A DNA stretch of 64,000 nucleotides. Source: an uncultured Thermoplasmatales archaeon (GTDB taxonomy: Archaea; Thermoplasmatota; E2; DHVEG-1). Location: assembly GCA_964391965.1 (NCBI GenBank), contig CAYMOC010000002.1:16915-80914 (forward strand), given 5' to 3'. Shown here one piece after another: positions 7,837-37,937 of the stretch. Position 1 is the stretch's first letter; each line of letters begins with the position of its first letter. The notes under the pieces are model-generated. The model was not told where the DNA came from. It did not search any database and saw nothing but the letters and a program-made list of their open reading frames with translations. Position numbers and translations under genes: made by a program.

Positions 7837-7862
7837 AAAAAATCTATTTTTTTTTTATTTTT
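7837..7862. terminator. T-rich bidirectional terminator between convergent genes
   Basis: An oligo-T/A tract (tattttttttttatttttt) lies between the stop codons of convergent genes. Confidence 0.3.
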
Positions 7863-9504: not shown

Positions 9505-9828
9505 TTATGTTTTTTTAACAAGCATTTTTTTAAACAAAGGATCCTTAAGAGTCTCCTGAAGTTGACCTAGAAAATCATTCCATGAAAGACTATTATTAGA
9601 CCATTTAATCATTTCTTTTTTATGAAGTGAAAAAATTTTAAGAAAACTCTGCCAACTATAACCATCATCTTTTAATGGTTTAGACCAACCAGCATCACGC
9701 CAAAGATAACTAGGAAGCTTGTTTCCAAACCATAAAGTAAAAGAATCTATTTTAAGTTCCAAGTTTTTTTTCTGATTCATAAAATGTTTTTTTAATTTTT
9801 TAGGTTCAGGTGGAATATGATAATTCAT
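9505..9828 (-). CDS. hypothetical protein, probably co-transcribed with downstream radical SAM gene
   Basis: A 21-bp gap separates it from the next gene on the same strand. It is Trp-rich and I recognised no family. Confidence 0.3.
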   Translation of the reverse strand: MNYHIPPEPKKLKKHFMNQKKNLELKIDSFTLWFGNKLPSYLWRDAGWSKPLKDDGYSWQSFLKIFSLHKKEMIKWSNNSLSWNDFLGQLQETLKDPLFKKMLVKKT

Positions 9829-10026: not shown

Positions 10027-11019
10027 GTGGAAGAGCTGAAAAAAATTATAACCATTAAGGATAAACTATTTGCTCATTTAGAAACTTGGAGGATTTATAC
10101 TATTATATGGTGTGGTCTTGTAAGTCTTACAGGTTCATGCATATCTCATGAAGGTTTTCCACCATTAATAATTGCTTTTTTTGTAACAATTACACCGATG
10201 ATGGGATGGGCGGCAGCTCTATATCTATCAGATTTTTTAGACAGAAAACTTGATGCTATAGAAAAACCCCATAGGCCTATCCCTTCTGGAAGAATCAGCC
10301 CCAAAGAAGCAATAATTGTAGGCGGAATCTTTGTGATAACAGGGCTGATTATTTCATATATCTTAGGAATCTATAACTTTATTTTAGTGTTTATAGTAGC
10401 TATACTAGTTTATTCATATACAAAGATTTCAAAATCAAAAGGTTTAATGGGCAATCTGAACCGTGGAGTTGTAATAGTCGCAGCATATTTTTATGGAGTT
10501 TTTTCAGCAAATATACATATTGAATTATTGCCAGTATATATCTGGATATTACCACTTGTATTTCTCTTTCACGACACTAACAGCAATTTAGTTGGAGCCA
10601 TTCGAGATATGAAAGGCGACAAAAAAGGAGGATATCAAACTATACCAGTCAAGTATGGCCTGGAAAAATCTGTTTATATTTCATTAATTTTAACATTTAT
10701 ATGGCATGGTATACTATTATTTTTACAATATAACTATAAATTTTTAGAACCAGTTTTTTATGTTTTTTTGTTAATCGATATTTTTATTATAGTTTCATTA
10801 TATGGTTATATGTTTAGATCTATCAAAGACTACACTCGAAAAAAAGCTTTAAATTTTCATCGTTTTTTTGTGATAGAAAGAATAATACTTGCATCTAGCA
10901 TCATATTAGGAATAATTGAAATTAACTTAGGAGTAATTATTCTGATTTTATCCTTGATAACAACTATTACATCTCAACATTATTTAAGAAGTAGATATGA
11001 GTTTGTTGATAAAAAATGA
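10027..11019 (+). CDS. UbiA-family prenyltransferase (DGGGP-synthase-like)
   Basis: It has Asp-rich motifs DFLDRKLD (DxxDxxxD), RPIPSG and DMKGDKKGG. There are about 8 TM helices. The start codon is GTG. Confidence 0.65.
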   Translation: MEELKKIITIKDKLFAHLETWRIYTIIWCGLVSLTGSCISHEGFPPLIIAFFVTITPMMGWAAALYLSDFLDRKLDAIEKPHRPIPSGRISPKEAIIVGGIFVITGLIISYILGIYNFILVFIVAILVYSYTKISKSKGLMGNLNRGVVIVAAYFYGVFSANIHIELLPVYIWILPLVFLFHDTNSNLVGAIRDMKGDKKGGYQTIPVKYGLEKSVYISLILTFIWHGILLFLQYNYKFLEPVFYVFLLIDIFIIVSLYGYMFRSIKDYTRKKALNFHRFFVIERIILASSIILGIIEINLGVIILILSLITTITSQHYLRSRYEFVDKK

Positions 11020-12011
11020 AATATGCAGTTATTGGCTTAGGTGCCGTTGGGAGTATCATTGCTGGTTTACTTTCAAAAAACAATGAAAATGTTATCTTAA
11101 TTGGTAAAAAAACACAAATCGAGCAGATTAAAAAAAATGGATTAAAAATCTCAACAAATCAATCTGAGACAATAATAGAAAATCTTAACTTATCATCAAA
11201 GTTTGCTTCTGTAGAGAAAGTTGATATACTTTTTGTATGTGTAAAATCACAGGATACTAAAAAATTATTTTTAGAACTAAAAGAGTTTCTAAAAGAAGAA
11301 ACGGTTATTGTTTCATTACAAAATGGTGTTAGAAACGCTGAAATAATAAATAAAATTGTTAAAAATAAGGTACTTTCATCAGTAGTTTTATTCAATGCCG
11401 TATACAAAAAACCAGGAAACGTCGACTTGTCAATCAGGGGAGGAATTCTATTAGAAGATGATAAAAAATATTCAAAAATAATAGATGAATTATTCAAAAA
11501 CACGGATGTAAAAATAACTCTTGTCGAAAACATAAAAAGTTACCAATGGAGTAAACTTATCCTAAATCTGCAAATAGCTGTAACTGCACTTACTGGTCAA
11601 ACAATAAAAGAATCAATTATAAATAAGGATTCGAGGAAAATTTTAGCTGAAACAATGTCTGAAGGAGTAAAAATTGTTGACAAATCAGGTGTTAAACTTG
11701 AAAAACTGCCGGGTCTTGATCCAAAAAAAATGATTAAACGGCTTAATATGCTTAATTCAATATTTTTAAGAATAGGAAGTAAATTTCTTGGTGTTTCAAA
11801 GAATGCTAGAAATTCAATGTGGCAGAGTCTTGCAAGAAATAAAAAAACTGAAATAGATTTTATAAATGGTGAAATTGTAAAACTTGCAGAGAGAAATAAT
11901 TTAGAAGCACCTATAAATGAAAAACTTGTAAAATATGTAAAACAGGCCGAAAAAAAAGACAGTGTTGGTAACATCAAACCCAAGAAGTTGAGAAAAATAT
12001 TAGATTTTTAA
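11016..12011 (+). CDS. ketopantoate reductase (ApbA/PanE) family NAD(P)H oxidoreductase
   Basis: The N-terminus MKYAVIGLGAVGSIIAGLL is a Rossmann fold. Its start overlaps the UbiA stop (ATGA), giving translational coupling. Confidence 0.6.
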   Translation: MKYAVIGLGAVGSIIAGLLSKNNENVILIGKKTQIEQIKKNGLKISTNQSETIIENLNLSSKFASVEKVDILFVCVKSQDTKKLFLELKEFLKEETVIVSLQNGVRNAEIINKIVKNKVLSSVVLFNAVYKKPGNVDLSIRGGILLEDDKKYSKIIDELFKNTDVKITLVENIKSYQWSKLILNLQIAVTALTGQTIKESIINKDSRKILAETMSEGVKIVDKSGVKLEKLPGLDPKKMIKRLNMLNSIFLRIGSKFLGVSKNARNSMWQSLARNKKTEIDFINGEIVKLAERNNLEAPINEKLVKYVKQAEKKDSVGNIKPKKLRKILDF

Positions 12012-12064: not shown

Positions 12065-12913
12065 ATGAAAAGAAATTCAAATAAACAAATTCAAGAGCAA
12101 TGGGCAAAATATTGGGATAACGTCTGGGTTCAGAAAGACGACTCAAAAAAACTTAAATCAATTAATAAAAAAGAGCAAATTTATTTTTCTTTAGCAGGCA
12201 TTATCAACTCATATATTAAAAATTATATTAAAAATGATAAAGAATACAGAATAATTGAGATTGGTTGCGGTGGTTCTTCAATATTTCCAATTTTGATGAA
12301 GAGCTTTAAAAATCTAAAAATCGCAGGTATTGATAGGTCTCTTCTTGGATGTAATTTCGTATTTGAAGGAAATGAATATAGAAATGGATCTGTTGATGTC
12401 ATCTGTGGTGATGCATTACAAATTCCAATAAAAAATAATTCTTTCGATATCTCTTATAGTATTGGCCTTGTTGAACATTTTGAAAATCAATATGAAATTA
12501 TCAAAAGCCATGTAGATCTTTTAAAAAAGGAGGGGTTAGTTGTAATAGTGATACCAAATCTAACTGGTTTTCAAAAAAAACTATTAAGATCTGAGCTTTT
12601 TAAATCCAAAACAGCATTGAACAATCAAAATTGGATTAATGGAATGAAAATAACGACAACTAATGATTTAAAAAAAATATTAAAAAAGCTAGATTGTAAA
12701 AAAATCGAAATCATACCCGCAGGAGGGTTACATCCGCTTTTAATGTTGGAATCATATTATTCAGAGAAATACTCTGAAGCAAATAAATTTTCAGATACTA
12801 TTTATAAAATCTTTTTATCAGGACTGTTTATAATAATTAATATTCCCTTTATATTTAGATTAAACATGATGAATTTATCACCTTTCATTGTAGCCACTGC
12901 AATAAAAAAATAA
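12065..12913 (+). CDS. class I SAM-dependent methyltransferase
   Basis: Motif I is IIEIGCGGSS. An acidic loop and a motif II-like region (VICGDALQIP) follow. Confidence 0.6.
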   Translation: MKRNSNKQIQEQWAKYWDNVWVQKDDSKKLKSINKKEQIYFSLAGIINSYIKNYIKNDKEYRIIEIGCGGSSIFPILMKSFKNLKIAGIDRSLLGCNFVFEGNEYRNGSVDVICGDALQIPIKNNSFDISYSIGLVEHFENQYEIIKSHVDLLKKEGLVVIVIPNLTGFQKKLLRSELFKSKTALNNQNWINGMKITTTNDLKKILKKLDCKKIEIIPAGGLHPLLMLESYYSEKYSEANKFSDTIYKIFLSGLFIIINIPFIFRLNMMNLSPFIVATAIKK

Positions 12914-12940: not shown

Positions 12941-13594
12941 ATGAGTAGTAAAATAGTTATAAATTTTTTTTCTTTTATCAAAAAAATTTTGTTTTCTGAA
13001 TTTCCTGATAAATTCAAACCCGGGAGTTTAAAAAATGTTGTAGATCTGATGTTCAGAGTTTTTGAAAAAACAGCTCATAATTTTGATTTTATAACAAATG
13101 CATATTTGAATGCATATGAAGTTATGATTGAAAAAGAGTTAAAACTAACAGAGGTATCAAAGGATGATTCTGTTTTAATCATTGGATGTGGTTCTCTGCC
13201 TTCTACATCTATTGTTATTGCTGAAAAAACTAATGCTAAAAATGTTAGTATGGATATAGATAAATCTGCAGTTGAAGCAGCTAGAAAAATATTAAAGAAA
13301 ATGAATCTTTTAGATAAAGTAAAAGTAAGACTTGTTGAAGATATAAATTATCCAATAGATGATTTTGATTTAATCTTTATTTTATATGGTGTTAAGAAAC
13401 AGGAAAAAATTTTTAGACATATTTTTGAAAATGCAAAATCAGATGTTAAAGTTATAATTAGATCATATTCAGATGATTTTAAGAATGTTTTTGATTTTAA
13501 AAATTTTAAAGTTTTAGATCATTTTATAATTGTTAAAAAAGTTAGATCTGATGTTTTTGGACCTGTTTTTTCTTTTCTTTTAGAAAAAAAATAA
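12941..13594 (+). CDS. SAM-binding Rossmann-fold enzyme, nicotianamine-synthase-like glycine loop (or methyltransferase)
   Basis: VLIIGCGSLPSTSIVIAEK resembles the NAS motif (F/V)(I/V)GSGPLPLTSI(V/L). The protein is 217 aa. Confidence 0.4.
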   Translation: MSSKIVINFFSFIKKILFSEFPDKFKPGSLKNVVDLMFRVFEKTAHNFDFITNAYLNAYEVMIEKELKLTEVSKDDSVLIIGCGSLPSTSIVIAEKTNAKNVSMDIDKSAVEAARKILKKMNLLDKVKVRLVEDINYPIDDFDLIFILYGVKKQEKIFRHIFENAKSDVKVIIRSYSDDFKNVFDFKNFKVLDHFIIVKKVRSDVFGPVFSFLLEKK

Positions 13595-13601
13595 GTTTGT
13601 T

Positions 13602-14978
13602 TTATTTTTTTATTTTAGAAACTATTACTTTTATTTGATCTGAACGTGCATCTTTTTGTATATGATCTGTTTCTGTTACTCTGACTTTAACACTTTTTCC
13701 TATTTTTTGTTGAAATCTTTTTTGAAGTTCATTAATTAATTCTTTAACACTTACTCCTTGGTTTCTTTGTTTTTCATCTATTACGATTAATATTTCAACG
13801 TCATCAAGATCATGTTGCACTATTTGGAATTGTTTTATTTTATAAGAGTTAAAAAATTCCATTGTTTTTGCAGGGATACCAGTTACACTCAATGGAGAAA
13901 GTGTTTTTCCATTTGGAAGATAAATTAATTCTGATGTTCGGCCTTCGATGTGTTTTATTAATTTTGAAGTTATTCCACAACTTGTTTTTTTATCAATAGG
14001 TACAACTATGTCATCTATACCTGTATATCTTATTATTGGGGTTCCTTTCCCGTATAGTTTTGTTATTACTGTATGACCTGGTTTGTTTAAAGGAACGGGT
14101 TTATTGTTATCATCAAGTATTTCCATGTAGACATAGTCTGAGTGGATGTGGAAAAAGTTGCCTTCAACACATTCGAAACCTATTGGTCCTCCTTCTGTTG
14201 TTCCATAAATGTCAAAAACGCGTGTGTTGAATGCCTTTTCTACATATTTTTTTGTGTACTCATCAAGTGTTGAACCTCCAGAGCCTATGAATTTTGGTTG
14301 AATGTTTTTTCCTTGCCCATTGTGTTTTAAATATGCTAGTTGTCTAAGCATGTTAGGATCAGTAGCTAAAAACTCTGGTTGGAAAACATTTAGTTCTTTG
14401 ATTATTTTTTCTGGTTTTTCACCTAAATGCAGATATTTTACATGATCCATTGATATGAATTTTTTTGCGAAAGGCATTAGACTTTCTGAGAAAAAAGCGT
14501 TTTCTGCACTACCTGGTTCTACATCTATTATCAGACATGATTTTGTAGTTCTCCAGTTTCCACCATATGCTTTTAAAACTCTTATAAAAGCAAGCAGGCT
14601 TTTGATTGCAGCAAAACGGTCGATATAAATAAAAACTGGTTTACCAGTAGAGCCACTAGTAGATATTGTAAAACCGTCTTTTGTTTTAAAATTATAAGGT
14701 TTAATGTTTACAGGATAGTTATTTCTTAAATCATCTTTTGTGATGAAAGGAAGTTTACCGATATCATTTATTCCATGTATATCATCGGGATGAACTCCAG
14801 CTTTTTTGTATTTATCATGATACATTGGCACAGTGTATGCATATTTCACAATTTTTCTAAGTTGTTTATCCTGATATCGTCTAAGTTTTTCTTTGTCAAA
14901 ACTCCATGGTCTATTGATATCAGAAAGATAATTTTTGCCTAGATTATATAGAAATTTAGGATCGATAAAGAAACTCAT
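13602..14978 (-). CDS. PaaK/coenzyme F390 synthetase-like adenylate-forming enzyme
   Basis: It has the AMP-binding P-loop TSGSTGKP and an N-terminal region typical of COG1541. Confidence 0.65.
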   Translation of the reverse strand: MSFFIDPKFLYNLGKNYLSDINRPWSFDKEKLRRYQDKQLRKIVKYAYTVPMYHDKYKKAGVHPDDIHGINDIGKLPFITKDDLRNNYPVNIKPYNFKTKDGFTISTSGSTGKPVFIYIDRFAAIKSLLAFIRVLKAYGGNWRTTKSCLIIDVEPGSAENAFFSESLMPFAKKFISMDHVKYLHLGEKPEKIIKELNVFQPEFLATDPNMLRQLAYLKHNGQGKNIQPKFIGSGGSTLDEYTKKYVEKAFNTRVFDIYGTTEGGPIGFECVEGNFFHIHSDYVYMEILDDNNKPVPLNKPGHTVITKLYGKGTPIIRYTGIDDIVVPIDKKTSCGITSKLIKHIEGRTSELIYLPNGKTLSPLSVTGIPAKTMEFFNSYKIKQFQIVQHDLDDVEILIVIDEKQRNQGVSVKELINELQKRFQQKIGKSVKVRVTETDHIQKDARSDQIKVIVSKIKK

Positions 14979-15098
14979 TTTTCAAATATTTCCTCTTTTT
15001 TTGCTCTACATGTATTATTAACACAAGATATTTAACTTTTAATAATAGAACTATATTATTTGATTTAAAGGGAGGCGTCTTAACTGAGCGTGTTTTCT

Positions 15099-16412
15099 AT
15101 GATTCGTGGATTTTTAGCTTTAAAAATTCATGAAAGAAACTCTAGAGAAAAAATACTTAAAATTCAAGAAAAAAAATTCCGTAAAATTTTAAAATTTGCC
15201 TATAACAATTCTAAATTTTATCATAATCTGTATAAATCAAAAGGTATTTCAGAGGAGGAATTGGATAATATACCTGTTGAAAAAATACCTGTGGTAGATA
15301 AAGAAACATTAATGGAAAATTTTGATGATGTGGTAACAGTAGATGATGTTTCCAAAAAAGAGGTTCTGAGTTTTTTAAATGAAAGTAAACATCCTAATGA
15401 TCTTTTAAAAAACAAATATCATGTTATTCATTCATCAGGTTCCTCTGGTAAATTAGGTTTGTTTCTTTACAGCAAAAAAGAATGGGACAGCATTTACCCA
15501 TATATTACAAAAGCTTATGATTTCAATTTCAGAAAAAACCGTTCTGTTTTTATAGGTGCAACAGGAGGACATTTCGCAGGAGCCAGCTTTAGTAGTTGGG
15601 GTGGAAAAGGAATACCTGGTTTATTTAATGAACCACTTATACTTAATGTAAATGAACCAATAGATCAGATAATAAAAAAACTAAATAATTTTAAACCAAC
15701 AATTTTAGGTGGTTATTTTAATGCTTTAAAAATTCTTGCTCAGAAAAAAGAAAATGGTTTACTCAAAATTAATCCTAAAATATTAGTAAACTGTGGGGAA
15801 GGACTAAACCTTAAAGACAAAGAATTTATTGAGAATGTTTTCGATGCACCTATGTCAAATTTGTATAGTTTTGCTGAATGTATTGTTTTAGGATTTGGAA
15901 AGGATGAATATGAAGGCATATACCTTTTTGATGATTTAGCAAAAATTGAATTTAAAAAAGATTATATAATTGTTACAAACCTGTATAATAAAACAGAGCC
16001 GATAATTAGATACAGAATTGATGACTATATTTCATTAAAAAAAGATAAAAAAAACAAGTATCCCTTTACACTAGTAAATGAAATAATTGGAAGAGCAGAG
16101 TTTATAATTTGGTTTAAAAATGAAGAAGGAAACAAAGATTTTATTCATCCTTTGATTTTTACAGATTTTTTTGTTAAAGGATTAGATAAACATCAAATAA
16201 TTATAACCGGTGAATCTTCATTTATTTTTAAAGCAGTTATTAAATCTGATGAAAAAAAGAGAGTTTTAAAGGAAATAGATAAAAAATTAGAAAAAATTTT
16301 ATTAGATAAAAAATTTTCAAATGTCAAATACCAAATCAAAGAAGTTGATGAAATTCCTGTTAACCCAAAAACAGGTAAATATAAACTAGTAATAGATAAG
16401 AAAAAAAATTGA
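15099..16412 (+). CDS. PaaK-like adenylate-forming enzyme paralogue with degenerate P-loop
   Basis: Its architecture matches 13602-14978, but the P-loop is HSSGSSGKLG. The ATG at 15099 is preferred over the GTG at 15090. Confidence 0.5.
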   Translation: MIRGFLALKIHERNSREKILKIQEKKFRKILKFAYNNSKFYHNLYKSKGISEEELDNIPVEKIPVVDKETLMENFDDVVTVDDVSKKEVLSFLNESKHPNDLLKNKYHVIHSSGSSGKLGLFLYSKKEWDSIYPYITKAYDFNFRKNRSVFIGATGGHFAGASFSSWGGKGIPGLFNEPLILNVNEPIDQIIKKLNNFKPTILGGYFNALKILAQKKENGLLKINPKILVNCGEGLNLKDKEFIENVFDAPMSNLYSFAECIVLGFGKDEYEGIYLFDDLAKIEFKKDYIIVTNLYNKTEPIIRYRIDDYISLKKDKKNKYPFTLVNEIIGRAEFIIWFKNEEGNKDFIHPLIFTDFFVKGLDKHQIIITGESSFIFKAVIKSDEKKRVLKEIDKKLEKILLDKKFSNVKYQIKEVDEIPVNPKTGKYKLVIDKKKN

Positions 16413-16416
16413 TGTT

Positions 16417-17814
16417 TTAATCATCTCTTATAAAAAACATTCTAAGTCCTGCTTTAATAAAACGGAAATCCCATTTTTTAAAAGCTCTAAAAATTTGTCG
16501 AAAAAGATATTTAGGATTAAAATAAAATTTTTTATGAGCATATAAACAGTAATCATTTAGCTCCTCTTTTGACAGTTTACTTAATCCTCTGTTTGAGTCT
16601 GCATCCACAATATATTCATCTGATCTGACTTTGCCATTTTTCACAGCTTCATCCCACATCTCGGAACCGCGGTAATAACCAAGAGTTAAAAAATGTGCGA
16701 TATCCAATGGAATACTTCTAGCAAAACGAATTGTATCCTCAATATCTTCTTTTGTTTCCATTGGTGCACCAAAAATAAAACTACCAGAGGTTATGAAACC
16801 CATTTTGTGGCTAAGATGTACTGCATTACGAATTTGATCAGGAGTTGTTCTTTTATTATAAAAATCTAAAACTTTCTGATTAGCTGATTCGATACCAAAA
16901 GAAATAAATTTTACACCGGCATCCTTCATTTTTTTATAAATTACTGGATCTGCTGAATCTACTCTAGCAGCCATAACCCAGAAATTTAGATTAAAATTAT
17001 TCTCGATTACTTTATCCATTATTTTTCCGACACGTTTCTTATTTGCAAGAAAATTATTATCAACAATTATAACAGTTTCAAAACCATCTTTTACAATCTT
17101 ACGAAGCTCTTTGATGACATTTTCAACAGATCTCTCACGATAACATGGATCTATTGCATTATAACCACAGAATCTGCAATTATATGGACAACCCCGTGTT
17201 GTGATTATAGAAGTTGTTTTACCATCGGTCATTTTTTGACCTAAGATATAACCATAGTCATATTTTTCAACAAGATGGCGAGCTGGAAAAACGATCTTAT
17301 CTAAATCTTTTATAACATCTAAATCCGCGGTTTTTTTAATCAAACCTTTTTTATCACAATAACAAATCCCTTTAATCGCTGATAGGTCTTTTTTACCGTT
17401 CAAGGCATCAACAATATCAAGTATGTTTTGCTCCCCTTCCCATTTAACACAAATATCTGAATCAAAATCCATAAGAGCATCTTCTGGATCTAACGCACAA
17501 TGAGGGCCACCAATTAAAAAAGGTTTATTTTTTTCAATGTTTCTAATAAATTTTGCTAATTCTTTTGATTGCTCAAAAGAACTTGTACAAATAGTTAGAC
17601 CTATAACATCTGACCATGAAATCAATGATTTAAGTTTTTCACGTTCAACATTTTCAGCAGTTAAATCTAATACTTCAATACTGTGACCGTCTTTTTCTAG
17701 AATTGCTGAAAGATATAATATTCCCAGAGGTGGAGAATAAGGATTAACCGGTAAGGTTTTTTTATCTGCGATTCTAAATCCTCTACCTGGAGGGAAAATA
17801 AACAAAAAATTCAT
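16417..17814 (-). CDS. B12-binding radical SAM protein
   Basis: It has an N-terminal cobalamin-binding-like domain and the motif RGCPYNCRFCG (CxxxCxxC). Confidence 0.7.
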   Translation of the reverse strand: MNFLFIFPPGRGFRIADKKTLPVNPYSPPLGILYLSAILEKDGHSIEVLDLTAENVEREKLKSLISWSDVIGLTICTSSFEQSKELAKFIRNIEKNKPFLIGGPHCALDPEDALMDFDSDICVKWEGEQNILDIVDALNGKKDLSAIKGICYCDKKGLIKKTADLDVIKDLDKIVFPARHLVEKYDYGYILGQKMTDGKTTSIITTRGCPYNCRFCGYNAIDPCYRERSVENVIKELRKIVKDGFETVIIVDNNFLANKKRVGKIMDKVIENNFNLNFWVMAARVDSADPVIYKKMKDAGVKFISFGIESANQKVLDFYNKRTTPDQIRNAVHLSHKMGFITSGSFIFGAPMETKEDIEDTIRFARSIPLDIAHFLTLGYYRGSEMWDEAVKNGKVRSDEYIVDADSNRGLSKLSKEELNDYCLYAHKKFYFNPKYLFRQIFRAFKKWDFRFIKAGLRMFFIRDD

Positions 17815-17828: not shown

Positions 17829-19157
17829 TTAAATATTAAAATCATTTTTGTAATATCTTCTAAATGTAACATTAGTCCCCATAGGAAGTAATGCTCCCAT
17901 TCTCCTAACTGTTGTTAAAATCCTTGTGTTTCTTTTTATGATATTCTTCCACGAGTAAAATTCTTTAGCGACTTTTTTACTCCCGTTTAATAATTCTTCA
18001 ACGGTCATATTTTTGGGTTCAAAAACAACATCAACCTGATTATATTTACTCCAATCTTTAGTAAAAATACGTCCTTCTCTATCAAGCCTATCAAATAAAG
18101 GCGTACCTGGATACGGCGTTAAAATATTTATTTCAAGAACATCTATTTCAAGTTCATTTATTTTTTCAAGAGTTGCATCAAAAACATCAGGTGTGTCTTC
18201 ATCAAAACCAAATATTATCCCCCCTTGAATTGACATCCCGTAATCATGAACACGATCTATCATTTTACTAAAATCTTCAACCTTATTATGTGTTTTTTTT
18301 ATACCATTAAGAGCAGCCTGACTAACTGATTCAAAACCTACAAACCATTCAACACAACCAGATTCTCTAGCCAGCTGTAAAAATTCATCATCAGCTTTTA
18401 ACAAAACATTAGTTGTACCATTAGACACCCAACTTTTATTTATCTTATTTTTAATCATTTCCTTGAAAAGTTTTTTAGCATATTTTGGATTCGCAGTTAA
18501 ATGAGGATCATGAATTGTAAAGAGTCGGTTAGGCATTTCTTTCATTTCATTTATTACATTTTGTATAGGTCTTTGTTTAATACCATGCTCGCAGAAACTA
18601 GCAATTGCACAAAACTCACACCTGTTGGGACAACCACGTGTTGTCTGAACAGCACCCATAATAGGATTATGTCTGATAAGATCTCTTCTTATAGGAGGTA
18701 TGTCCTCGGGTTTATAGTTTGTATCTTTTTCATAAATTTTTTTAAGTTTTCCTTTCTCAAAATCAGCAAGAAGCTTAGGCCAGTTCGATTCAGCCATACC
18801 TAAAATAATACTATCAGCATGTTTCAAAGCCTCTTCAGGCACAGCAGTTGGATGATAACCTCCAAGAACTACTTTTTTACCCCTTTTTCTAAACTCATCA
18901 GCTATTTCATAGACACGTGGAGCTGTCATAGTATAACAAGTAATACCTATAAGATCTGCATCAGTATCAAAATCAAGGGAATCATAGTTCTCATTAACGA
19001 TTTCTACATCATATTTTTTAGGAGTGATTGCTGCAACATGGGGCAAAGTAATTATTGGATAACCAAAAAGAATAGAAGCCCATGAGCTTTTATCATTTAC
19101 AGTAGTTGCACCATGTTCAATCCTTGGAAACACAAGAAGTACTTTAATAAAGTTCAA
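17829..19157 (-). CDS. B12-binding radical SAM protein (DUF4070-like C-terminus)
   Basis: The radical SAM motif is RGCPNRCEFCA. It is a clear paralogue of 22762-24045. Confidence 0.7.
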   Translation of the reverse strand: MNFIKVLLVFPRIEHGATTVNDKSSWASILFGYPIITLPHVAAITPKKYDVEIVNENYDSLDFDTDADLIGITCYTMTAPRVYEIADEFRKRGKKVVLGGYHPTAVPEEALKHADSIILGMAESNWPKLLADFEKGKLKKIYEKDTNYKPEDIPPIRRDLIRHNPIMGAVQTTRGCPNRCEFCAIASFCEHGIKQRPIQNVINEMKEMPNRLFTIHDPHLTANPKYAKKLFKEMIKNKINKSWVSNGTTNVLLKADDEFLQLARESGCVEWFVGFESVSQAALNGIKKTHNKVEDFSKMIDRVHDYGMSIQGGIIFGFDEDTPDVFDATLEKINELEIDVLEINILTPYPGTPLFDRLDREGRIFTKDWSKYNQVDVVFEPKNMTVEELLNGSKKVAKEFYSWKNIIKRNTRILTTVRRMGALLPMGTNVTFRRYYKNDFNI

Positions 19158-19270: not shown

Positions 19271-20587
19271 TCAAAAAAGTTTATCAAAATCCGAGATGAA
19301 ATAATCGGATTTATTTATTTCAACAGACTTAAAATCTATTTTAATTTTTGGATAGAGTTGAAATTTTGTTTTAATTTTTTTATTTAGACCATGTGAATTT
19401 AAAACTAAATTTAAACCAAAACCTTCAGGTGGTTTTAAAAAATCTAAGCTTATAGAACTATGATTTGTGTTAAATAATTGTCTTTGAGGTTCAAATTTAC
19501 AAAACCCTTCTAAATCTATTCTTCTATCGCCATTTGAATAAAAACCTTTTACAGTTCCAGGTTGTTCATAAACTATATATGCATTCTTATTGTCAGATAA
19601 TTTAAATAGAAAACCATATGGGTCAGTTTTTTTCTTAAAATTTATTTTGAATTTTTCTTTATCATCCTGAAAGATTAAACTTATTTCAGTGGGGTAATAA
19701 ATATCATGATCTTCTGAATATTCAATTTTTTTATATTCAAAACATCCATTAAAAAATTCTTTATATTTGCATCCATCCTTAGATAAAATAATTGTGCCTA
19801 TAACAGGGCCTTTTAATATCCATCCTAAAATATTACCATAAAAAAGAGTCCAACCATTATCAAAAACTGCCCATGCCCAATCATAACCAAGAGGGTTATT
19901 GTCTTTACTAAAAGCTAAGGAATTTGGGATTCTTGGTTTTTTGCATTGCAACCATTTACCCATTAGTTTAGCATAAGTTGAAAGACTTTTTTTAATATTT
20001 CTTGAATATGTAAACCAGTTTGTATATGAAAAATCTCCCCATACATGTTCATAATATCCAGAGCCGTTTACTGAAAAATTATTTTGATTTATGTTTAACA
20101 AACCTGAGATTTTACATTTTGGGATAAAACCATACCTGTAAAAACCTAAACCCATTGGAAGCCAGCCGTTAGTTGTTCCTTGGGATACCCAATGTGGTAG
20201 TGCTTCTGATTTATATGTTAAATTGGTTTGTATATTGTTTTTTTTATCATTCAAAAAAATTTTATAATCTGGGAATAAACCTTCGATGTATGAATCTTTG
20301 TAATTTATTTTTTGAGTTTTGTGATCTGCATATATTTTCAGTTTTTTTCGCTGATTTTCAGAATAATAACTATAATGTTTATTTTCATCTAAGTCGAAAA
20401 GAGTTATAAAAAAATTTGAGCCGTATTCTTTTGATTTTTTGAACCATTCGCCAAAGGAGGCTTTTAAATTCCATTTTTTTTTATTATCATTTTGTTTTAA
20501 AAAAGCTTCGAAACACCACCACTCTATTGCACTTTTTTCATGTTCTTTTTCATCAGAACAGCTCCAAGGATTTTTATTATCAACCAT
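19271..20587 (-). CDS. CrtC/AttH-like (carotenoid 1,2-hydratase/lipocalin-like) protein, tentative
   Basis: HEKSAIEWWCFEAFL resembles the H..EWWY.TGhL N-terminal motif of the CrtC/AttH family. The protein is Trp/Tyr-rich and beta-rich. The internal ATG at 20587 avoids overlap with the divergent gene. Confidence 0.35.
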   Translation of the reverse strand: MVDNKNPWSCSDEKEHEKSAIEWWCFEAFLKQNDNKKKWNLKASFGEWFKKSKEYGSNFFITLFDLDENKHYSYYSENQRKKLKIYADHKTQKINYKDSYIEGLFPDYKIFLNDKKNNIQTNLTYKSEALPHWVSQGTTNGWLPMGLGFYRYGFIPKCKISGLLNINQNNFSVNGSGYYEHVWGDFSYTNWFTYSRNIKKSLSTYAKLMGKWLQCKKPRIPNSLAFSKDNNPLGYDWAWAVFDNGWTLFYGNILGWILKGPVIGTIILSKDGCKYKEFFNGCFEYKKIEYSEDHDIYYPTEISLIFQDDKEKFKINFKKKTDPYGFLFKLSDNKNAYIVYEQPGTVKGFYSNGDRRIDLEGFCKFEPQRQLFNTNHSSISLDFLKPPEGFGLNLVLNSHGLNKKIKTKFQLYPKIKIDFKSVEINKSDYFISDFDKLF

Positions 20588-20682
20588 AGACAAAAATTGT
20601 ATTAAATAGATTATATAAATATGTTTATCATACATATAAAAAAGTTTTTTTATAGGATAAAACATATAAAAAATGGTTTTCT

Positions 20683-21699
20683 TTGCAGATGAAAAAAACA
20701 AAAGTTGACATAATAGGCGGGGGAATATCAGGATTAGCCGCAGCCATAGCAATAAAAAAACTTAACAAAAAAATAGATGTAAATATCTATGAAAAACACA
20801 AAAAAATAGGATACAACCCAGAAGGAAGAAGATGTGGAGAAGCCCATTCAATAGAAGGAAAATGGAAAAAATGGAAACCAAACAAAAAAAGCATATTCAA
20901 TGAAATATACAAAGTCGAAACAATAGTCGGGAAAAAAACTTATACACTAAAAAGAAAAAAAGGAACATCCTGCATATTAAACAGACAAGAATTCATATCA
21001 AATTTAGGAAAAAAAGCAGAAAAACTTGGAGCATACATACAAACAGATAACAAAATAAAAACAATAAAAGAATTAGATGCAAAATACATAATCGATGCAT
21101 CAGGATGCCCTAGCTTTGTAAAAAAAGAATTAAAAATTAACCATGGAATAACAGGAAAAACATATCAACAAACAATAGAAAACTCAAATTTTTTCATAAA
21201 AGACACCGTTAAAATATTTATAACAGAAAAAACAGGCTATTATTGGATTTTTCCAAGAAATCCCGATAAAAAAGAAATTAATCTAGGTGTAGGCATTGTC
21301 GGAAAAAAACAAGCTAACTTAAAAAAAATATTAAATGAATTTAAAGAAAAATACAAAGTCACAGGAGAAATTAATTACAAAACAGGAGGGTTGATACCGG
21401 TCGGGCTGCAGAGGCCGCTTAAACATGAAAATATACTATTTGTTGGGGATACAGGAGTCGGCACTTTTCCGTATACTGGAGAGGGAATATACCGTGCTCT
21501 ATTAAGTGGAGATATCGCAGCGGATTGCATCGTCAAAAAACAAATAAGAAGATATCCTCATGAAATAAATCAAAATTTTATCAAATGGGATCTTATTGGA
21601 AAAAATGTAATAAGGATAAGCTCAGTATTAGAAAGTATAAGCCCAAAAGCTGTTGTTTCAATGCATCAAAAATATCTCAATTTTTTTATTAGCAATTGA
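20683..21699 (+). CDS. geranylgeranyl reductase-family FAD-dependent oxidoreductase (short, 338 aa)
   Basis: It has the FAD-binding motif DIIGGGISGLAAA and the GGR-family motif FVGDTGVGTFPYTGEGIYRALLSG. Confidence 0.55.
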   Translation: MQMKKTKVDIIGGGISGLAAAIAIKKLNKKIDVNIYEKHKKIGYNPEGRRCGEAHSIEGKWKKWKPNKKSIFNEIYKVETIVGKKTYTLKRKKGTSCILNRQEFISNLGKKAEKLGAYIQTDNKIKTIKELDAKYIIDASGCPSFVKKELKINHGITGKTYQQTIENSNFFIKDTVKIFITEKTGYYWIFPRNPDKKEINLGVGIVGKKQANLKKILNEFKEKYKVTGEINYKTGGLIPVGLQRPLKHENILFVGDTGVGTFPYTGEGIYRALLSGDIAADCIVKKQIRRYPHEINQNFIKWDLIGKNVIRISSVLESISPKAVVSMHQKYLNFFISN

Positions 21700-21735: not shown

Positions 21736-22716
21736 TTATCTATCAAATTTTTTGGGATACATGGTGTAACCAAATTCGTCAAAATAAAAAATCATTTTTT
21801 TATAAATGTATTCTCTAAGAAACTTTACTTCTCGGGCAAGATTAAGATTTCTAGGCTCTACATAATCCTTAAAATCTACGTCAGTTGTTACATCTAAAAA
21901 ATCAAGTACTTCATCCATTGTTTTATCTGTTTTATTACAAAGTGACTCATATGTAATAGAAACATAATCATTATCATTTAACTTATGTATATTATTTAGA
22001 TAAAAACTTGTTTCTTTTGAAGCCCTATTTATAATATCAAAAACACCAGTAGGAAAAAAACCTGAATAATATAAACGATTTAATGCTAAAAGAATAGGAT
22101 TTTCATATGTTTTATTATATTTTTTTGAAAACATTGCAGTATACAAATTCTTTTTCTCTAATAATTTCTGCCATGCCCTCATTGTAGAACTGATAACTGC
22201 TAGTGGATTTCTGTTGATAAAAATAAATTTGGCATTTGGAAAATGTTTTTTTATAAATAAAAAATTTGGATAATCATATGGGTTTTTAAGAAGAACAGGA
22301 TAATTATTTTTAGATATAAACATAATTTTTTGACATAATTGTTTTAAAAGAGCTGTGTTTTCCAAAGAAGTTTTCTCAGACATGTTTTTTTTAGTGTAAA
22401 TGTAAACATATTCATGAGCGTAATCAGCTGTTACTTTAATTCGATCAATTTTTCTATTAGTGATTCCTTTTGATTTAAAAACTTCATTAAGTTCTTCCTT
22501 TGTATCTTGTTCAAGGTTATTTATATGATTATAAATTAACTCATCATATTTTAAAATATGATACGCAGTTACAATATTGAGTTTTTTTGTATCACCTAGC
22601 ATTTTGTAAAGAATGCTTGTACCAGATCTATGCAAACCCATGATAAATATAGGATAAAAATCCATATTTTCTATTAGGTTAAGATGTGTTTTGTCAATAT
22701 TTTTTTCTTGTAACAT
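21736..22716 (-). CDS. PAPS-dependent sulfotransferase
   Basis: The 5'-PSB motif is GLHRSGTSIL and the 3'-PB motif is RNPLAVISS. Confidence 0.65.
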   Translation of the reverse strand: MLQEKNIDKTHLNLIENMDFYPIFIMGLHRSGTSILYKMLGDTKKLNIVTAYHILKYDELIYNHINNLEQDTKEELNEVFKSKGITNRKIDRIKVTADYAHEYVYIYTKKNMSEKTSLENTALLKQLCQKIMFISKNNYPVLLKNPYDYPNFLFIKKHFPNAKFIFINRNPLAVISSTMRAWQKLLEKKNLYTAMFSKKYNKTYENPILLALNRLYYSGFFPTGVFDIINRASKETSFYLNNIHKLNDNDYVSITYESLCNKTDKTMDEVLDFLDVTTDVDFKDYVEPRNLNLAREVKFLREYIYKKMIFYFDEFGYTMYPKKFDR

Positions 22717-22761: not shown

Positions 22762-24045
22762 TCAGATGTTTAGTTTTTCATTTTTGTAAAAATATCTAGT
22801 ACTTAAACCTGAAAGAAATGATGTTAAAACATCTATAACATTAAAACCATTGTTTTTTATACTTCTTTTTAAACAGTTTTTAACCGAGTAAAACTCTCCA
22901 GCTATCCTTCTGATACCCTCATATAATTCATCAGCCGTCATTTCTTTTGGTATGAAATTTACTTTACCTTCTTCATATCTTGACCAATCATAACTTGTTA
23001 TCCTTCCTTCTTTTTCCAATCTATCAAATAGTGGGGTACCTGGATAAGGTGTTAATATACTAAATGTTGCTGAATCAAGACCCCAATCATACATTGCTTT
23101 AAGTGTTTCATCAAAACAATCTGGTGTGTCATAATCTAACCCAAATACAAAAAAACCTGTAACTTTCATATCATGATTTTTGATTTTTTGGATAGCTTTT
23201 TCATAATCTTCAACCTTATTTGTACCCTTACCAGCAGAATCGATGCTTTCTTGGGATATAGATTCTATACCAAGATACCATCTTACAACGCCTGCTTTTT
23301 TAGCTAATTCTAAAAATTCATCATCTTTTGCTACAATATTTATATTGCCAAATGCATAAAATTTTTTATCAAGTTTCGCCATTTCCCTAAAAAGTTTTTT
23401 TGTATATTTTGGATTGATCGTGAGTGATGCATCTGCAAAAAATATTGATTTAGATTTTATTTTTTTCATTTCGTCAATTACAGATTCTACAGGACGGGCT
23501 CTAAAAATTCTTCCCTCCACCCTATTCATAGCGCAGAATTCACAACCAGTTGGACAACCTCGAGATACTTGGATTCCCTCCATAAAAGTATAATTACCGA
23601 CATCATGTCTTGCCTGTGGTATTTCTTCAGGTTTTACTAATCTTTCAGGTGTATATATTTTTTTAAGTTCTCCTTTTTCTAAATCCTTTAAAAGTTTAGG
23701 CCAAGTAAGTTCTCCTTCTCCAATAACTATTGCATCAGCATGCTCTTTTACTTCATCAGGCATAAGAGTTGCATGATAACCACCAATTACTACAGGCATA
23801 TTTTTTTCTCTAAATTTTTTTGCGACTTCATAAGCTCTAAGAGAATTATAAGTTAGAGACGTGATACCGACCAAATCATATTTTTTATTAAAATCTATAG
23901 TTTCATATCTTTCATCAATGATTTCAACATCATGTCCGTCCGGTGTAATACCAGCGATTTGTTGTAAAGTCAAACTAGGATAAGTAATCTTATTTAACAT
24001 ACTTCTTTTTGTATTTGGATGAGGAGAAACTAATAAAATTTTCAT
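22762..24045 (-). CDS. B12-binding radical SAM protein
   Basis: The radical SAM motif is RGCPTGCEFCA. It is a paralogue of 17829-19157. Confidence 0.7.
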   Translation of the reverse strand: MKILLVSPHPNTKRSMLNKITYPSLTLQQIAGITPDGHDVEIIDERYETIDFNKKYDLVGITSLTYNSLRAYEVAKKFREKNMPVVIGGYHATLMPDEVKEHADAIVIGEGELTWPKLLKDLEKGELKKIYTPERLVKPEEIPQARHDVGNYTFMEGIQVSRGCPTGCEFCAMNRVEGRIFRARPVESVIDEMKKIKSKSIFFADASLTINPKYTKKLFREMAKLDKKFYAFGNINIVAKDDEFLELAKKAGVVRWYLGIESISQESIDSAGKGTNKVEDYEKAIQKIKNHDMKVTGFFVFGLDYDTPDCFDETLKAMYDWGLDSATFSILTPYPGTPLFDRLEKEGRITSYDWSRYEEGKVNFIPKEMTADELYEGIRRIAGEFYSVKNCLKRSIKNNGFNVIDVLTSFLSGLSTRYFYKNEKLNI

Positions 24046-24289
24046 CTTTTAACACATCTAACAAATTTTTTTTATAAATTTTTTATATACAATTCTTATA
24101 TTTGTAGTTTTACCAACAAAACCCTGTTAATAAACTAAATTTTAGCGTAAATACACTCTATACTGGTTTAGTTTACTAAATAGGTTTTATTTAAAATTTT
24201 TTGATAGATCTATCCAAAAGAAAAAATTGATATCAACAGTAGTTTTTAATATTTCATGTTTTATTTTCCAATACTGGCGAATTGATATT

Positions 24290-25687
24290 ATGAATGAATT
24301 CTTTAATCCAAAAAATACATTTTCGTTTTTAAAAACATTTTTTTTCGATCCAAAAAGATTAAAGAATTTTTCCAAAGAAAAAATGGAAAGATATAGAAAT
24401 AAAGCATTTAGAAAAACAATAGAGTATGCTTATACAGTTCCTTTATACCATAAAAAATATAGAAAAGCAGGAGTACACCCTAAAGATATAAAAGGATTTA
24501 AAGATATAGAAAAACTACCTTTCGTTACAAAGAAAGACCTTAGAGAGGCATCCTTAGAAGAGATTATTTCAAAAGGTGCAAAAAAAGAGAATAAATATGT
24601 TGTTTGCACCAGTGGTTCTACTGGAAAACCTGTAAATTTTTTTACTGATTTTCAAACATTATCAAAAAGTATTGGGATTTACTTGAGAGAATTAGAGATT
24701 TTTGATTTACATTGGAGAAAGTCAAAAGTAGCACATATTGGAAATTTTAGTAAAGACAAAGCAGATTCTGCTTTCGAAGAAGGTTTTGTATCCAAAACAC
24801 GTGTTTTTTACAACCATAGTAACTCTCTTTCAATTAACAATTTTGAACCGATAGATAAAATTATGAAAAAATTAGACAGTTTTAAACCCGATCTGATTTT
24901 ATCCTACCCGGTGACTTTTAAAAATTTAGCTTTTTTAAAAAATAAAGGATATGGTAAAAACGTTAACCCCCAGGTTTTAGCTGTTGGCGGTTATGTTTTA
25001 GATGAATATACCAAAAAATATGTAGAGGATGCTTTCAACTGTAAAATGTTAAATGTTTACTCATCAGCAGAATCAGGTGCAGATATTGCATTTGAATGTT
25101 TTGATGATACTTGGCATGTAAACCATGATTTTTTCCATGTTGAATCTATAGATGAACAAAGAACTCCTGTTGATGATAAAACTTCAGGTCATGTTGTTTT
25201 GACAAGGATGTTTGGACAAGGAACGCCTATAGTTAGATACACAGGTATGGATGATTGGGTTACAATAGAAGAAGATTATAACTGCAGTTGTGGTTTAAAT
25301 ACCCCTATTTTAAAAGGTGGTATTAAAGGTAGGATGAGCACAAGTGTTATTTTACCAGATGGAAGAGTTTATCCTTCTGCATCATTTGCTTTTATATCTG
25401 TTATTTTAAATAAGTTTAATACAAAAAAAGTGAAACAATTTCAGATAATTCAGAATAAAATTGATGATATTGAGATTTTACTTGTAATAGATGAAGTCCT
25501 TAGAGATAAACCTCCCGCGGTTGATAAAATTTTTAATAAAATAAAAGAAAAATATCAAGAGATCTGCGGAGAAAATGTTAATATCAAAGTAAGAGAGGTA
25601 GATGAAATTAAATCTGAAAGAGGGAAACCTTCACCTTTGGTGATTTCAAAGATTGATACTGAAGAGGCATATAAAAAAATATTATAA
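24290..25687 (+). CDS. PaaK/coenzyme F390 synthetase-like adenylate-forming enzyme
   Basis: The P-loop is TSGSTGKPVNFF. It is a close paralogue of 13602-14978. The start is at the internal ATG at 24290. Confidence 0.65.
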   Translation: MNEFFNPKNTFSFLKTFFFDPKRLKNFSKEKMERYRNKAFRKTIEYAYTVPLYHKKYRKAGVHPKDIKGFKDIEKLPFVTKKDLREASLEEIISKGAKKENKYVVCTSGSTGKPVNFFTDFQTLSKSIGIYLRELEIFDLHWRKSKVAHIGNFSKDKADSAFEEGFVSKTRVFYNHSNSLSINNFEPIDKIMKKLDSFKPDLILSYPVTFKNLAFLKNKGYGKNVNPQVLAVGGYVLDEYTKKYVEDAFNCKMLNVYSSAESGADIAFECFDDTWHVNHDFFHVESIDEQRTPVDDKTSGHVVLTRMFGQGTPIVRYTGMDDWVTIEEDYNCSCGLNTPILKGGIKGRMSTSVILPDGRVYPSASFAFISVILNKFNTKKVKQFQIIQNKIDDIEILLVIDEVLRDKPPAVDKIFNKIKEKYQEICGENVNIKVREVDEIKSERGKPSPLVISKIDTEEAYKKIL

Positions 25688-26244: not shown

Positions 26245-27192
26245 ATGTTTAAAGCTAAAAAGTTTATAGAAGAATCAGTTGAAAAAATCAAAAACGATGT
26301 CGACGGTAAAGCCCTTATAGCTTTTTCTGGAGGAGTAGATAGTACTGTTTGTGCAGCTCTTGTAAATAAAGCAATCGGTGATGACCTAATAGCAGTACAT
26401 GTAGACACTGGTTTTATGAGGAAAGGCGAATGTGAATCGGTAAAAGAATTAATGGAAAACATGAATCTTAATTATCGATTTATTGATGCAAGCCAAGATT
26501 ATTATAAAGCTCTTAAAAATATTGTTGATCCTGAACAGAAACGTAAAATTATTGGTGAAAAATTTATACGTATTTTTGAAAAAGTAGCCAAGGAAGAAAA
26601 CATTGATTATTTGGTTCAAGGAACAATAGCTCCGGATTGGATTGAATCAGGTGATGATGTACGTGATACAATTAAATCTCATCATAATGTCGGTGGTCTT
26701 CCTGAAAAAATGGATTTAAAACTTGTTGAACCACTTCGAGATCTTTACAAAGACGAGGTCCGCAAACTTGCTAGAGAGATGAAGTTACATGTTTCAGAAA
26801 AACAACCATTCCCGGGACCGGGTCTAGCAATTAGAATTATGGGTGAGGCAACATCAGAAAGAGCAGATATTGTTAGAGAAGCATGTTTTATTGTTGAAGA
26901 TGAAATAAACAAAGCTGTTGAAAAAAAACTTATGGAGATGCCTTGGCAGTATTTTGCAGTACTACTCCCAGTTAAAACAGTTGGAGTACATGGAGACAAA
27001 AGAGTTTATGGAGATGTTATAGCTGTTAGAGCAGTAAAAAGTATGGATGCCATGAGTTGTTCATTTAGTAGCATACCTGATGAAATCTTAGATAACATAT
27101 CTAACAGAATCACAAACACACTTGGGGATAAAATCAACCGTGTGGTTTATGATGTGACAAATAAACCACCTGGAACAATCGAATGGGAATAA
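26245..27192 (+). CDS. guaAB: GMP synthase subunit B (ATP pyrophosphatase)
   Basis: It has the SGGVDS PP-loop and a GMP synthase C-terminal domain. Confidence 0.8.
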   Translation: MFKAKKFIEESVEKIKNDVDGKALIAFSGGVDSTVCAALVNKAIGDDLIAVHVDTGFMRKGECESVKELMENMNLNYRFIDASQDYYKALKNIVDPEQKRKIIGEKFIRIFEKVAKEENIDYLVQGTIAPDWIESGDDVRDTIKSHHNVGGLPEKMDLKLVEPLRDLYKDEVRKLAREMKLHVSEKQPFPGPGLAIRIMGEATSERADIVREACFIVEDEINKAVEKKLMEMPWQYFAVLLPVKTVGVHGDKRVYGDVIAVRAVKSMDAMSCSFSSIPDEILDNISNRITNTLGDKINRVVYDVTNKPPGTIEWE

Positions 27193-31784: not shown

Positions 31785-31865
31785 GTTTATCTCTCCTTTT
31801 AAAAGCAATAACAAAAATAATTAACATACGTTAACTATATAATATTTTTCCAAAAAAAGAAAAAA

Positions 31866-33222: not shown

Positions 33223-34008
33223 TTAACCCAAAACTGTAAGATTTTCAATTAATTCCTTGTTACACGCTGCTATGACACTAGTTCTTTCATCCAAAGACAG
33301 GGGCATATCAAGCTTTCTACCCATCATATCTGTCACAAAACCACCAGCCTCACGAACAAACAAGGTAGATGCGGCAATATCAGTAACCCTCATGTACTCA
33401 CGTCCAACAATATAAAAATCCAAAGCACCTGTAGCCACAAGACACATCTCCAAGCTAGCACAACCTAAAGAACGAACTTTATCTTGTTTAGCAAGAACGA
33501 AACTTTTTTTATCATAATTATTACCCAAAGTCAAACAAGAAAGAATCTGCTTATCGGGAACCTCTGGAGCGGCAACACGGTTTTTGTTCATAAAGGCACC
33601 ATGACCTTTTTCGCAAACAAACAAATCACCAGTAGGAATATTACGAACCACACCATACCATACATCTGACAAGTTTTGTTTACCCACAGCTAAAGAAACA
33701 GAATAAAAAGGAATACCACGAGAGGCGTTACGAGTACCATCCACAGGATCCAAAACAAAAACAAACTCTCCCCCATTATCAACAAAACCAGCTTCTTCAC
33801 TAAGAACATTAACCTTAATTTTAGATTTCTTAATAGCCTTTAACGCTACATCCTCAGCAAGCTGATCAATAAACTTAGTAGGAGTACCATCAGCACCAAT
33901 ACCTACATTTCGTTTAAAACTAGAAAAATCAGATTTAGCAACACGTCTAACCTTACGATAGATTTTATCAACAACTTTACCAGCTAAAATTTTTATTTCT
34001 TCAACCAT
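33223..34008 (-). CDS. inositol monophosphatase / fructose-1,6-bisphosphatase family (SuhB-like)
   Basis: It has the VLDPVDGT metal-binding motif. Confidence 0.7.
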   Translation of the reverse strand: MVEEIKILAGKVVDKIYRKVRRVAKSDFSSFKRNVGIGADGTPTKFIDQLAEDVALKAIKKSKIKVNVLSEEAGFVDNGGEFVFVLDPVDGTRNASRGIPFYSVSLAVGKQNLSDVWYGVVRNIPTGDLFVCEKGHGAFMNKNRVAAPEVPDKQILSCLTLGNNYDKKSFVLAKQDKVRSLGCASLEMCLVATGALDFYIVGREYMRVTDIAASTLFVREAGGFVTDMMGRKLDMPLSLDERTSVIAACNKELIENLTVLG

Positions 34009-37864: not shown

Positions 37865-37937
37865 TTTATCCAAACCAAATTTTTTATTTGTTTGTTTATA
37901 TAAATTTTCATATATAAATTTTTCCTTATATAAAAAA

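Follow-up and report, generated by a model that had tools for sequence, protein, structure and literature searches.

A PAPS-type sulfotransferase within a radical SAM and prenyl-related gene cluster of an uncultured Thermoplasmatales archaeon

A stretch of 64,000 nucleotides from contig CAYMOC010000002.1 of an uncultured Thermoplasmatales archaeon, referred to here as the window, carries a gene for a sulfotransferase (ST) predicted to use 3'-phosphoadenosine 5'-phosphosulfate (PAPS). The open reading frame (ORF) starts with an ATG at 22716, reaches a stop codon that ends at 21736 and encodes 326 amino acids, with recognizable 5'-phosphosulfate-binding (5'-PSB) and 3'-phosphate-binding (3'-PB) motifs:

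21736..22716, minus strand: ST; 5'-PSB R30-S31-G32-T33; candidate base H53; invariant R88, D91, E102 and K130; catalytic-lysine motif K144-N-P; 3'-PB R169...S177; Y256-E257

The protein matches Pfam Sulfotransfer_3 (PF13469) with 81.8 bits against a gathering cut-off of 27 (E 1.1e-22), over its residues 22-278 and profile positions 1-214 of 216, and also Sulfotransfer_1 with 31.7 bits (cut-off 22). The first residues of the motifs RSGTS and RNPLAVISS are 30 and 169, respectively. This family assignment and the motifs are far beyond chance, and the ORF, the Pfam matches and the alignments described below agree with the coordinates, both motifs and the ST identity proposed in the initial annotation of the locus. 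That annotation had regarded a grouping with non-sulfotransferase P-loop proteins as a reason to doubt the prediction; the protein has instead the sulfotransferase fold, as opposed to that of P-loop kinases. It contains no hydrophobic or transmembrane (TM) segment and is therefore expected to be soluble.

A profile of the ST family searched against PDB sequences retrieved the ST domain of CurM (E 4.4e-8), TPST1 (1e-6), the OLS ST (7e-6) and Stf1 (3e-3). In the profile alignments the 5'-PSB stretch GLHRSGTS (G27-L-H-R30-S-G-T-S34) lies opposite PRSGTT of TPST and PRSGST of CurM, the 3'-PB stretch FINRNPLAVISS (R169-N-P-L-A-V-I-S-S177) opposite VRDGRASVHS and VRHPYSVIES, respectively, KNPYD (K144) opposite the TPST motif KDPFA with its catalytic lysine, and YESL opposite YEQL/YEDL. 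CurM H62 is aligned with H53, and CurM Glu60, the catalytic base of that enzyme, with A51, which is variable across the ST family. Since the Glu60 position is a variable alanine, the general base is uncertain and could be either H53 or E102. A count of residue conservation over 79 genome-encoded family members gave 78 for each of R30, S31, G32 and T33, likewise 78 for K144, and 76 for H53; R88, D91, E102, K130, R169, S177 and C260 are kept in all 79. The cofactor-binding and catalytic residues are all retained among relatives of 36-88% identity, which argues for purifying selection on the ST. It is very probable that the window ST is a functional PAPS-type sulfotransferase; its enzyme class is close to certain, and its acceptor is what we infer below from the genes around it.

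The closest structural relatives of this protein are the mycobacterial Stf9 (PDB 2z6v) and Stf1 (PDB 2zq5), at an identity of only ~13% and with acceptors that are, to our knowledge, undefined. The CurM and OLS STs (PDB 4gbm, 4gox) are domains within polyketide synthase (PKS) modules and are followed by a thioesterase (TE), whereas the window ST is a stand-alone protein of 326 residues, its A51 does not match the catalytic Glu60 of CurM, and Pfam scans of the window revealed no PKS or TE domains. TPST1 and TPST2 are membrane-anchored Golgi enzymes with peptide acceptors; in contrast, the window ST has no TM segment and no peptide context. It belongs to an uncharacterised subfamily of Sulfotransfer_3 and adds a new protein to a well-known enzyme class.

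The gene is part of a cluster that spans ~10.0-25.7 kb of the window and that contains, besides the ST, the following genes (L numbers designate related loci in other genomes; GGR, geranylgeranyl reductase; SAM, S-adenosylmethionine):

10027..11019, plus strand: UbiA-family prenyltransferase (Pfam UbiA 123 bits; no NCBIfam equivalog cut-off passed)
11016..12011, plus strand: ApbA/PanE-family NAD(P)H oxidoreductase (TIGR00745 203 bits, above the cut-off of 141; kept in L011)
12065..12913, plus strand: class I SAM methyltransferase, distantly UbiG/BioC-like
12941..13594, plus strand: SAM-dependent enzyme nearest to the nicotianamine-synthase (NAS)/CntL type (Pfam NAS 27.5 bits, cut-off 27.1; CntL 60.5 bits, below cut-off)
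13602..14978, minus strand: PaaK-like adenylating enzyme (TIGR02155 127.5 bits, below cut-off; Pfam AMP-binding 29.6 bits)
15090..16412, plus strand: F390-synthetase-related/PaaK-like adenylating enzyme (TIGR02304 118.6 bits, below cut-off; in the same BLAST cluster as CapK-like proteins)
16417..17814, minus strand: B12-binding radical SAM protein, HpnJ/BchE/PhpK-like, below all cut-offs
17829..19157, minus strand: B12-binding radical SAM protein with DUF4070; in L006 and L009-L011 the next gene downstream of the ST is its orthologue (66-69% identity)
19271..20665, minus strand: two-barrel protein of the CrtC/AttH fold that starts with a hydrophobic helix; candidate for hydration of prenyl C=C bonds or for a C-O lyase
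20683..21699, plus strand: GGR-like flavoprotein, convergent with the ST (Pfam GGR_cat 36.3 bits; TIGR02032 124 bits, below the cut-off of 158.8)
22762..24045, minus strand: B12-binding radical SAM protein, likewise with DUF4070; next gene upstream of the ST, at a distance of 45 nt (Pfam B12-binding, Radical_SAM, DUF4070)
24227..25687, plus strand: PaaK/CapK-like adenylate-forming ligase, divergent (PDB PaaK 4r1l, E 5e-19; precomputed PF27533 CapK_C)

The ST and the B12-binding radical SAM gene upstream of it are probably co-transcribed, because they share one strand and are separated by 45 nt only. The counterpart of this radical SAM protein in L005 is 93% identical and its arrangement is alike. 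The GGR-like protein clusters with the flavin adenine dinucleotide protein of the cysDNC arrays described below; it is short (338 aa) and divergent. The NAS/CntL-like gene is kept in L010 and L011 and adjoins CrtC-like genes in L093 and L095. Genes for this putative SAM enzyme, kin of aminocarboxypropyl transferases, are found repeatedly in the company of CrtC-like, UbiA and radical SAM genes (L011 10903-12380, L093 9293-9853, L095 16377-17006), and both in the window and in L011 an ApbA/PanE-family reductase gene is close by; the pathway of the cluster may thus include an aminocarboxypropyl or opine-like step. Directly upstream of the UbiA gene lie two further minus-strand ORFs that may belong to the cluster, one for a 542-aa radical SAM protein (7855-9483; weak Radical_SAM match and sub-threshold B12/MiaB-like matches) and one of 107 aa without family (9505-9828). 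The radical SAM protein may conceivably be a lipid enzyme resembling tetraether synthase.

Another reading is peptide tailoring, in which a TPST-like tyrosine or serine sulfotransferase would act together with B12-radical-SAM C-methyltransferases on a ribosomally synthesised and post-translationally modified peptide (RiPP). This is very improbable: Stf9 and Stf1 score clearly above TPST, many of the surrounding genes are of the UbiA, GGR, CrtC-like and lipid-methyltransferase types, and neither a gene for a precursor peptide nor a protease/transporter pair nor a RiPP recognition element was noticed, though no systematic search for them was made.

A word-indexed search with the window ST yielded 195 matches, typically 42-55% identical, of which the named ones derive from Thermoplasmata/Thermoplasmatota metagenome-assembled genomes (MAGs). 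An exhaustive search of 1.84 billion cluster representatives (50% identity) retrieved 577 relatives at E <= 1e-3, 131 of them at E <= 1e-30, and a scan of species-representative genomes 369 ST loci; the best 80 of these 369 comprise ~65 Thermoplasmatota MAGs and 13 cyanobacteria. The closest genome is that of the uncultured Thermoplasmatales archaeon CAYLLH010000064.1 (L005), whose ST is 88% identical and syntenic with the window, and several Thermoplasmatota MAGs (e.g. CP070724.1, CAYPWJ, CAVYNH and CAYLLH) encode 2-3 ST paralogues. The family is thus common, not rare, and expanded in sediment Thermoplasmatota, so that the earlier statement that cytoplasmic sulfotransferases are uncommon in archaea fails for this lineage; as a whole, that earlier interpretation is supported in part. 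Characterised archaeal sulfotransferases exist in Halobacterium salinarum (VNG1056C and VNG1057C), and sulfotransfer thus operates in Archaea (PMC11980604). Our literature searches found no study of this ST family in Thermoplasmatota, and nothing relevant on lipid radical-SAM clusters of Thermoprofundales or Marine Benthic Group D or on cyanobacterial clusters of ST, UDP-glycosyltransferase and cytochrome P450 genes.

The neighbouring ORFs of 82 loci were clustered and mapped on a neighbour-joining ST tree, which is approximate and midpoint-rooted and which yields clades of coherent gene context. Clade 1, that of the window, has neighbours encoding CapK/PaaK-like ligases, B12-radical-SAM and CrtC-like proteins. 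Its sole constant neighbour is the PaaK/CapK-like ligase, which adjoins the ST in L002, L005-L011, L091 and L092. In L006 and L009-L011 a B12-radical-SAM gene and one or two CrtC-like genes come after the ST on its strand, separated by 33-61 nt, and further B12-radical-SAM, PaaK-like, NAS-like and ApbA genes lie nearby, the STs being only ~51% identical. L090 carries four B12-radical-SAM genes and a UbiE-type methyltransferase gene; L091 two CapK-like genes, a radical SAM-SPASM gene, LPG_synthase_TM and archaeal mevalonate-pathway genes; and L092 a CapK-ST-acyltransferase-radical SAM operon together with MiaB-like radical SAM genes and a CMAS-type lipid methyltransferase gene. UbiA genes recur near STs and near CrtC-like genes in other loci. 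In reverse look-ups (n=3) the CrtC-like genes were again accompanied by UbiA, NAS-like, PaaK-like and radical SAM genes; as they keep this prenyl-related company and have an ST in one case out of three, the ST would be an optional tailoring step of a widespread prenyl-chemistry toolkit. That one case, L094 (8001-9949), is an independent pairing with a different ST: directly downstream of the CrtC-like gene, and on its strand, lies a truncated-looking 204-aa Sulfotransfer_3 gene, with two UbiA prenyltransferases on the flanks.

The remaining clades have other partners. In clade 2 the ST is always accompanied by three proteins, namely a second, shorter Sulfotransfer_3 protein (~275 aa), a type I phosphodiesterase/nucleotide pyrophosphatase and an unannotated protein of 418 aa (L029, L039, L045, L048, L062, L071, L075), in what looks like a double-sulfation module. 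UbiA and family 2 glycosyltransferase (GT2) genes are the neighbours in clade 3, and GT1 and LEA2-domain genes in clade 6. In clade 5 a gene for a TauE/SafE-family anion exporter follows the ST immediately (L043, L053, L056, L063, L065, L070, L077, L079); L077 is the second ST paralogue of the genome closest to the window's organism. Clade 4 is cyanobacterial and has a UDP-glycosyltransferase neighbour in eight of its 13 loci and a P450 neighbour in five. The carriers include Crocosphaera, Moorena, Microcoleus, Nostoc flagelliforme, Okeania, Lyngbya, Planktothrix and others, with STs 38-45% identical to that of the window (L051, L052, L057, L061, L068, L069, L072, L073, L076, L078, L080, L081, L083). 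This clade is nested inside archaeal diversity in the neighbour-joining tree, which suggests inter-domain transfer and a sulfated glycoside in filamentous and marine cyanobacteria.

Clade 7 combines the ST with cysDNC, GGR-like, GT2, LEA2 and UbiA genes. At least 10 loci of this SM1-50-type clade have the order cysD-cysN-cysC-(GGR-like)-GT2-ST-(GT1/LEA2/UbiA); in L026 and L028 the end of cysC (9976) lies 25 nt before the start of the ST on that strand (10001), and in Nostoc flagelliforme the ST also follows cysC directly. The arrays occur in Thermoplasmatales SM1-50-type MAGs (L003 4505-12044, L020, L022, L023, L025, L026, L028, L033, L036, L050), their GT2 being Glyco_transf_21-like and their GGR-like gene encoding a flavoprotein. 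The cysDNC-GGR-GT2-ST-GT1 array is a strong candidate for archaeal sulfated glycolipid synthesis. The window ST falls, in our tree, into a clade separate from this cysDNC-linked sister clade and with a different conserved context.

As the family is linked to cysDNC and the PSB and PB motifs are intact, PAPS is expected to be the sulfuryl donor, by extension also in the window's own organism. The window itself has no ATP-sulfurylase, APS_kinase or CysD/CysN family members in Pfam scans of its ORFs of at least 100 aa, and tblastn with archaeal CysD, CysN and CysC retrieved nothing in the 64 kb, which bears out the initial remark that sat and cysC are missing here. Two other candidates for PAPS metabolism were discarded: the Inositol_P protein at 33223-34008 is not a CysQ-type phosphatase of 3'-phosphoadenosine 5'-phosphate (PAP), matching the archaeal fructose-bisphosphatase/inositol-monophosphatase model with 232 bits as against 55 bits for CysQ, and the weak PAPS_reduct match at 26245-27192 is GMP synthase, a PP-loop relative. 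PAPS-synthesis genes are equally absent within 10 kb of any window-clade ST, which speaks for an intact enzyme that is idle, no PAPS being made in the organism, or that uses another donor. We give this explanation very little credit, since the conservation of the cofactor and catalytic residues implies purifying selection, synteny is kept with L005 at 88% ST identity, and related genomes carry several paralogues, some of them in cysDNC operons. In addition, the related chromosome CP070724.1 measures 2.3 Mb, and 64 kb is thus a small part of the genome.

The explanation that we consider best, and hold with moderate confidence, is that the gene encodes a soluble, intact PAPS-dependent O-sulfotransferase acting on a prenylated or isoprenoid-derived hydroxyl provided by the cluster. 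Because of the PaaK/CapK-like, B12-radical-SAM, CrtC/AttH-fold, UbiA, GGR-like and methyltransferase context, the acceptor would be a hydroxyl on an isoprenoid-derived lipid or metabolite made by the cluster; that it is isoprenoid-derived, as suggested by the clade partners and by the UbiA, GGR-like and methyltransferase genes of the window, is taken separately a tentative proposal, to which we would give slightly less than an even chance. In the reaction R30-S31-G32-T33 would bind the 5'-phosphosulfate and R169/S177 the 3'-phosphate of PAPS, K144 would stabilise the transferring sulfuryl group, and a base, probably H53 and possibly E102, would deprotonate the acceptor hydroxyl, which may have been introduced by the CrtC-like hydratase and which would attack the sulfur in line to yield a sulfate ester and PAP. 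The pairing of a CrtC-like protein with an ST may be analogous to that of Cyp128 and Stf3, which act in sulfomenaquinone synthesis (PMC7404182). Stf3 is a relative of Stf9 and Stf1; the Stf3 system has a P450, whereas the window cluster is devoid of P450 and its candidate hydroxyl-forming enzyme is the CrtC/AttH-fold protein. Quinone tailoring, to which the UbiA, UbiE-type methyltransferase, MiaB-like and B12-radical-SAM and GGR-like genes could also belong, was considered and is subsumed under the prenylated-product reading. Thermoplasma has methylthio- and methyl-naphthoquinones.

Several observations weigh against this proposal. Besides the absence of PAPS-synthesis genes, no NCBIfam model matches the window ST, and the position of the CurM base Glu60 is a non-conserved alanine in its family. 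The only universal partner is the PaaK-like ligase, an enzyme type with carboxylate substrates and no obvious role in lipid chemistry, and in L002, L007 and L008 the ligase and the ST stand as a pair alone among housekeeping genes. Two of the three reverse look-ups yielded a CrtC-like gene without ST. Finally, hydration of the CrtC type would lead to a tertiary alcohol, the sulfate ester of which would be chemically labile.

Sulfate could instead serve as a leaving group, with the ST esterifying an isoprenoid alcohol and the CrtC/AttH-fold protein, as a C-O lyase or cyclase, expelling the sulfate, so that an alkene, a double bond at a shifted position or a ring results. This reminds of the Sterolibacterium tandem of 25-hydroxysteroid kinase and 25-phosphosteroid lyase, a likeness that we infer only by analogy; there a kinase supplies phosphate from ATP, whereas the window would use a sulfotransferase. 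We find the leaving-group role unlikely. The CrtC/AttH-fold protein scores higher with AttH and kievitone hydratase than with the lyase, to which it is a less close structural match; about half of the clade loci have an ST without a CrtC-like gene, and CrtC-like genes also occur without ST; and the CurM parallel is weakened by the non-conserved base and by the lack of TE or PKS context in the window. Moreover, the sister clades with glycosyltransferases and cysDNC look as if their end products were stable and sulfated. That the ST and the CrtC/AttH-fold protein form, by the same analogy, a module in which archaeal isoprenoid alcohols are esterified at the expense of PAPS and then dehydrated, isomerised or cyclised as the barrel protein eliminates the sulfate ester, seems to us a shade more doubtful still.

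The family as a whole also invites a reading as a glycolipid or glycan sulfotransferase, which would sulfate a sugar on a glycolipid or on a dolichol-linked N-glycan, as the sister clades probably do. Its commonest neighbours are GT2 (Glyco_transf_21-like, 26 loci) and GT1-type genes (14 loci), to which the UDP-glycosyltransferase of the cyanobacterial loci can be added, and N-glycan sulfotransferases are known from archaea, VNG1056C and VNG1057C forming part of an aglB-anchored N-glycosylation cluster and acting on iduronic acid and glucuronic acid (PMC11980604). The window contains an AglB gene as well (40853-45790). Nonetheless, we consider this role improbable for the window ST: there is no glycosyltransferase in its cluster (10-26 kb) or adjoining any window-clade ST, the AglB gene is 18 kb away with housekeeping (purine, protease, lipid) genes between, and the separate clade, with its radical SAM, PaaK-like and prenyl-related context, sets the window ST apart from the haloarchaeal pair.

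Sulfated ether glycolipids are well-known haloarchaeal lipids; we know of no archaeal gene assigned to a lipid sulfotransferase. Taken by itself, the ST gene is unremarkable within an enzyme class that is well understood. Our analysis defines its family (577 representatives at 50% identity; 369 species-representative loci) and clades with distinct conserved partners, among which the cysDNC-GGR-GT2-ST-GT1 clade is a directly testable candidate for archaeal sulfoglycolipid synthesis, and the window clade points to a prenylated product, sulfated or sulfate-activated, in whose synthesis PaaK-like ligases and B12-radical-SAM enzymes would take part. Should such lipids exist, they would provide new biomarkers of these abundant benthic archaea and tie their membranes to the sediment sulfur cycle. 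If the sulfate-activation module were true, it would be the sulfate counterpart of the 25-hydroxysteroid kinase/lyase tandem and of the CurM ST-TE, and would give anaerobic archaea a new means of remodelling the side chains of lipids or quinones.

An Rfam scan of the window gave no matches. The GGR-like gene beside the ST has two paralogues of the same family (20683-21699, 49039-50301 and 56095-57291 in all), of which only that at 56095-57291 resembles the Thermoplasmatales digeranylgeranylglycerophospholipid reductase model (344 bits, below cut-off). The AglB/STT3 oligosaccharyltransferase encoded on the minus strand at 40853-45790 is a protein of 1645 aa with C-terminal Ig-like, CarboxypepD_reg and SdrD_B domains. 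Peptidases are encoded at 21-1385, 6481-7836, 30219-31814 and 34298-37963 (M32 carboxypeptidase, M18 aminopeptidase, papain-family C1 and a 1221-aa subtilase), and related loci contain C25 gingipain-like peptidases, an abundance consistent with a protein-degrading sediment lifestyle. No Pfam match was obtained for four consecutive ORFs at 51292-55248 (269, 300, 253 and 421 aa) or for a 729-aa ORF at 46840-49029 on the plus strand, the latter lacking an NCBIfam match as well. The segment from 62.3 to 64 kb, taken at first sight for an ORF-free stretch, belongs to a phosphoenolpyruvate synthase gene (61786-64000, plus strand) that runs off the window end and whose product measures 800 aa in the Logan contig L089.
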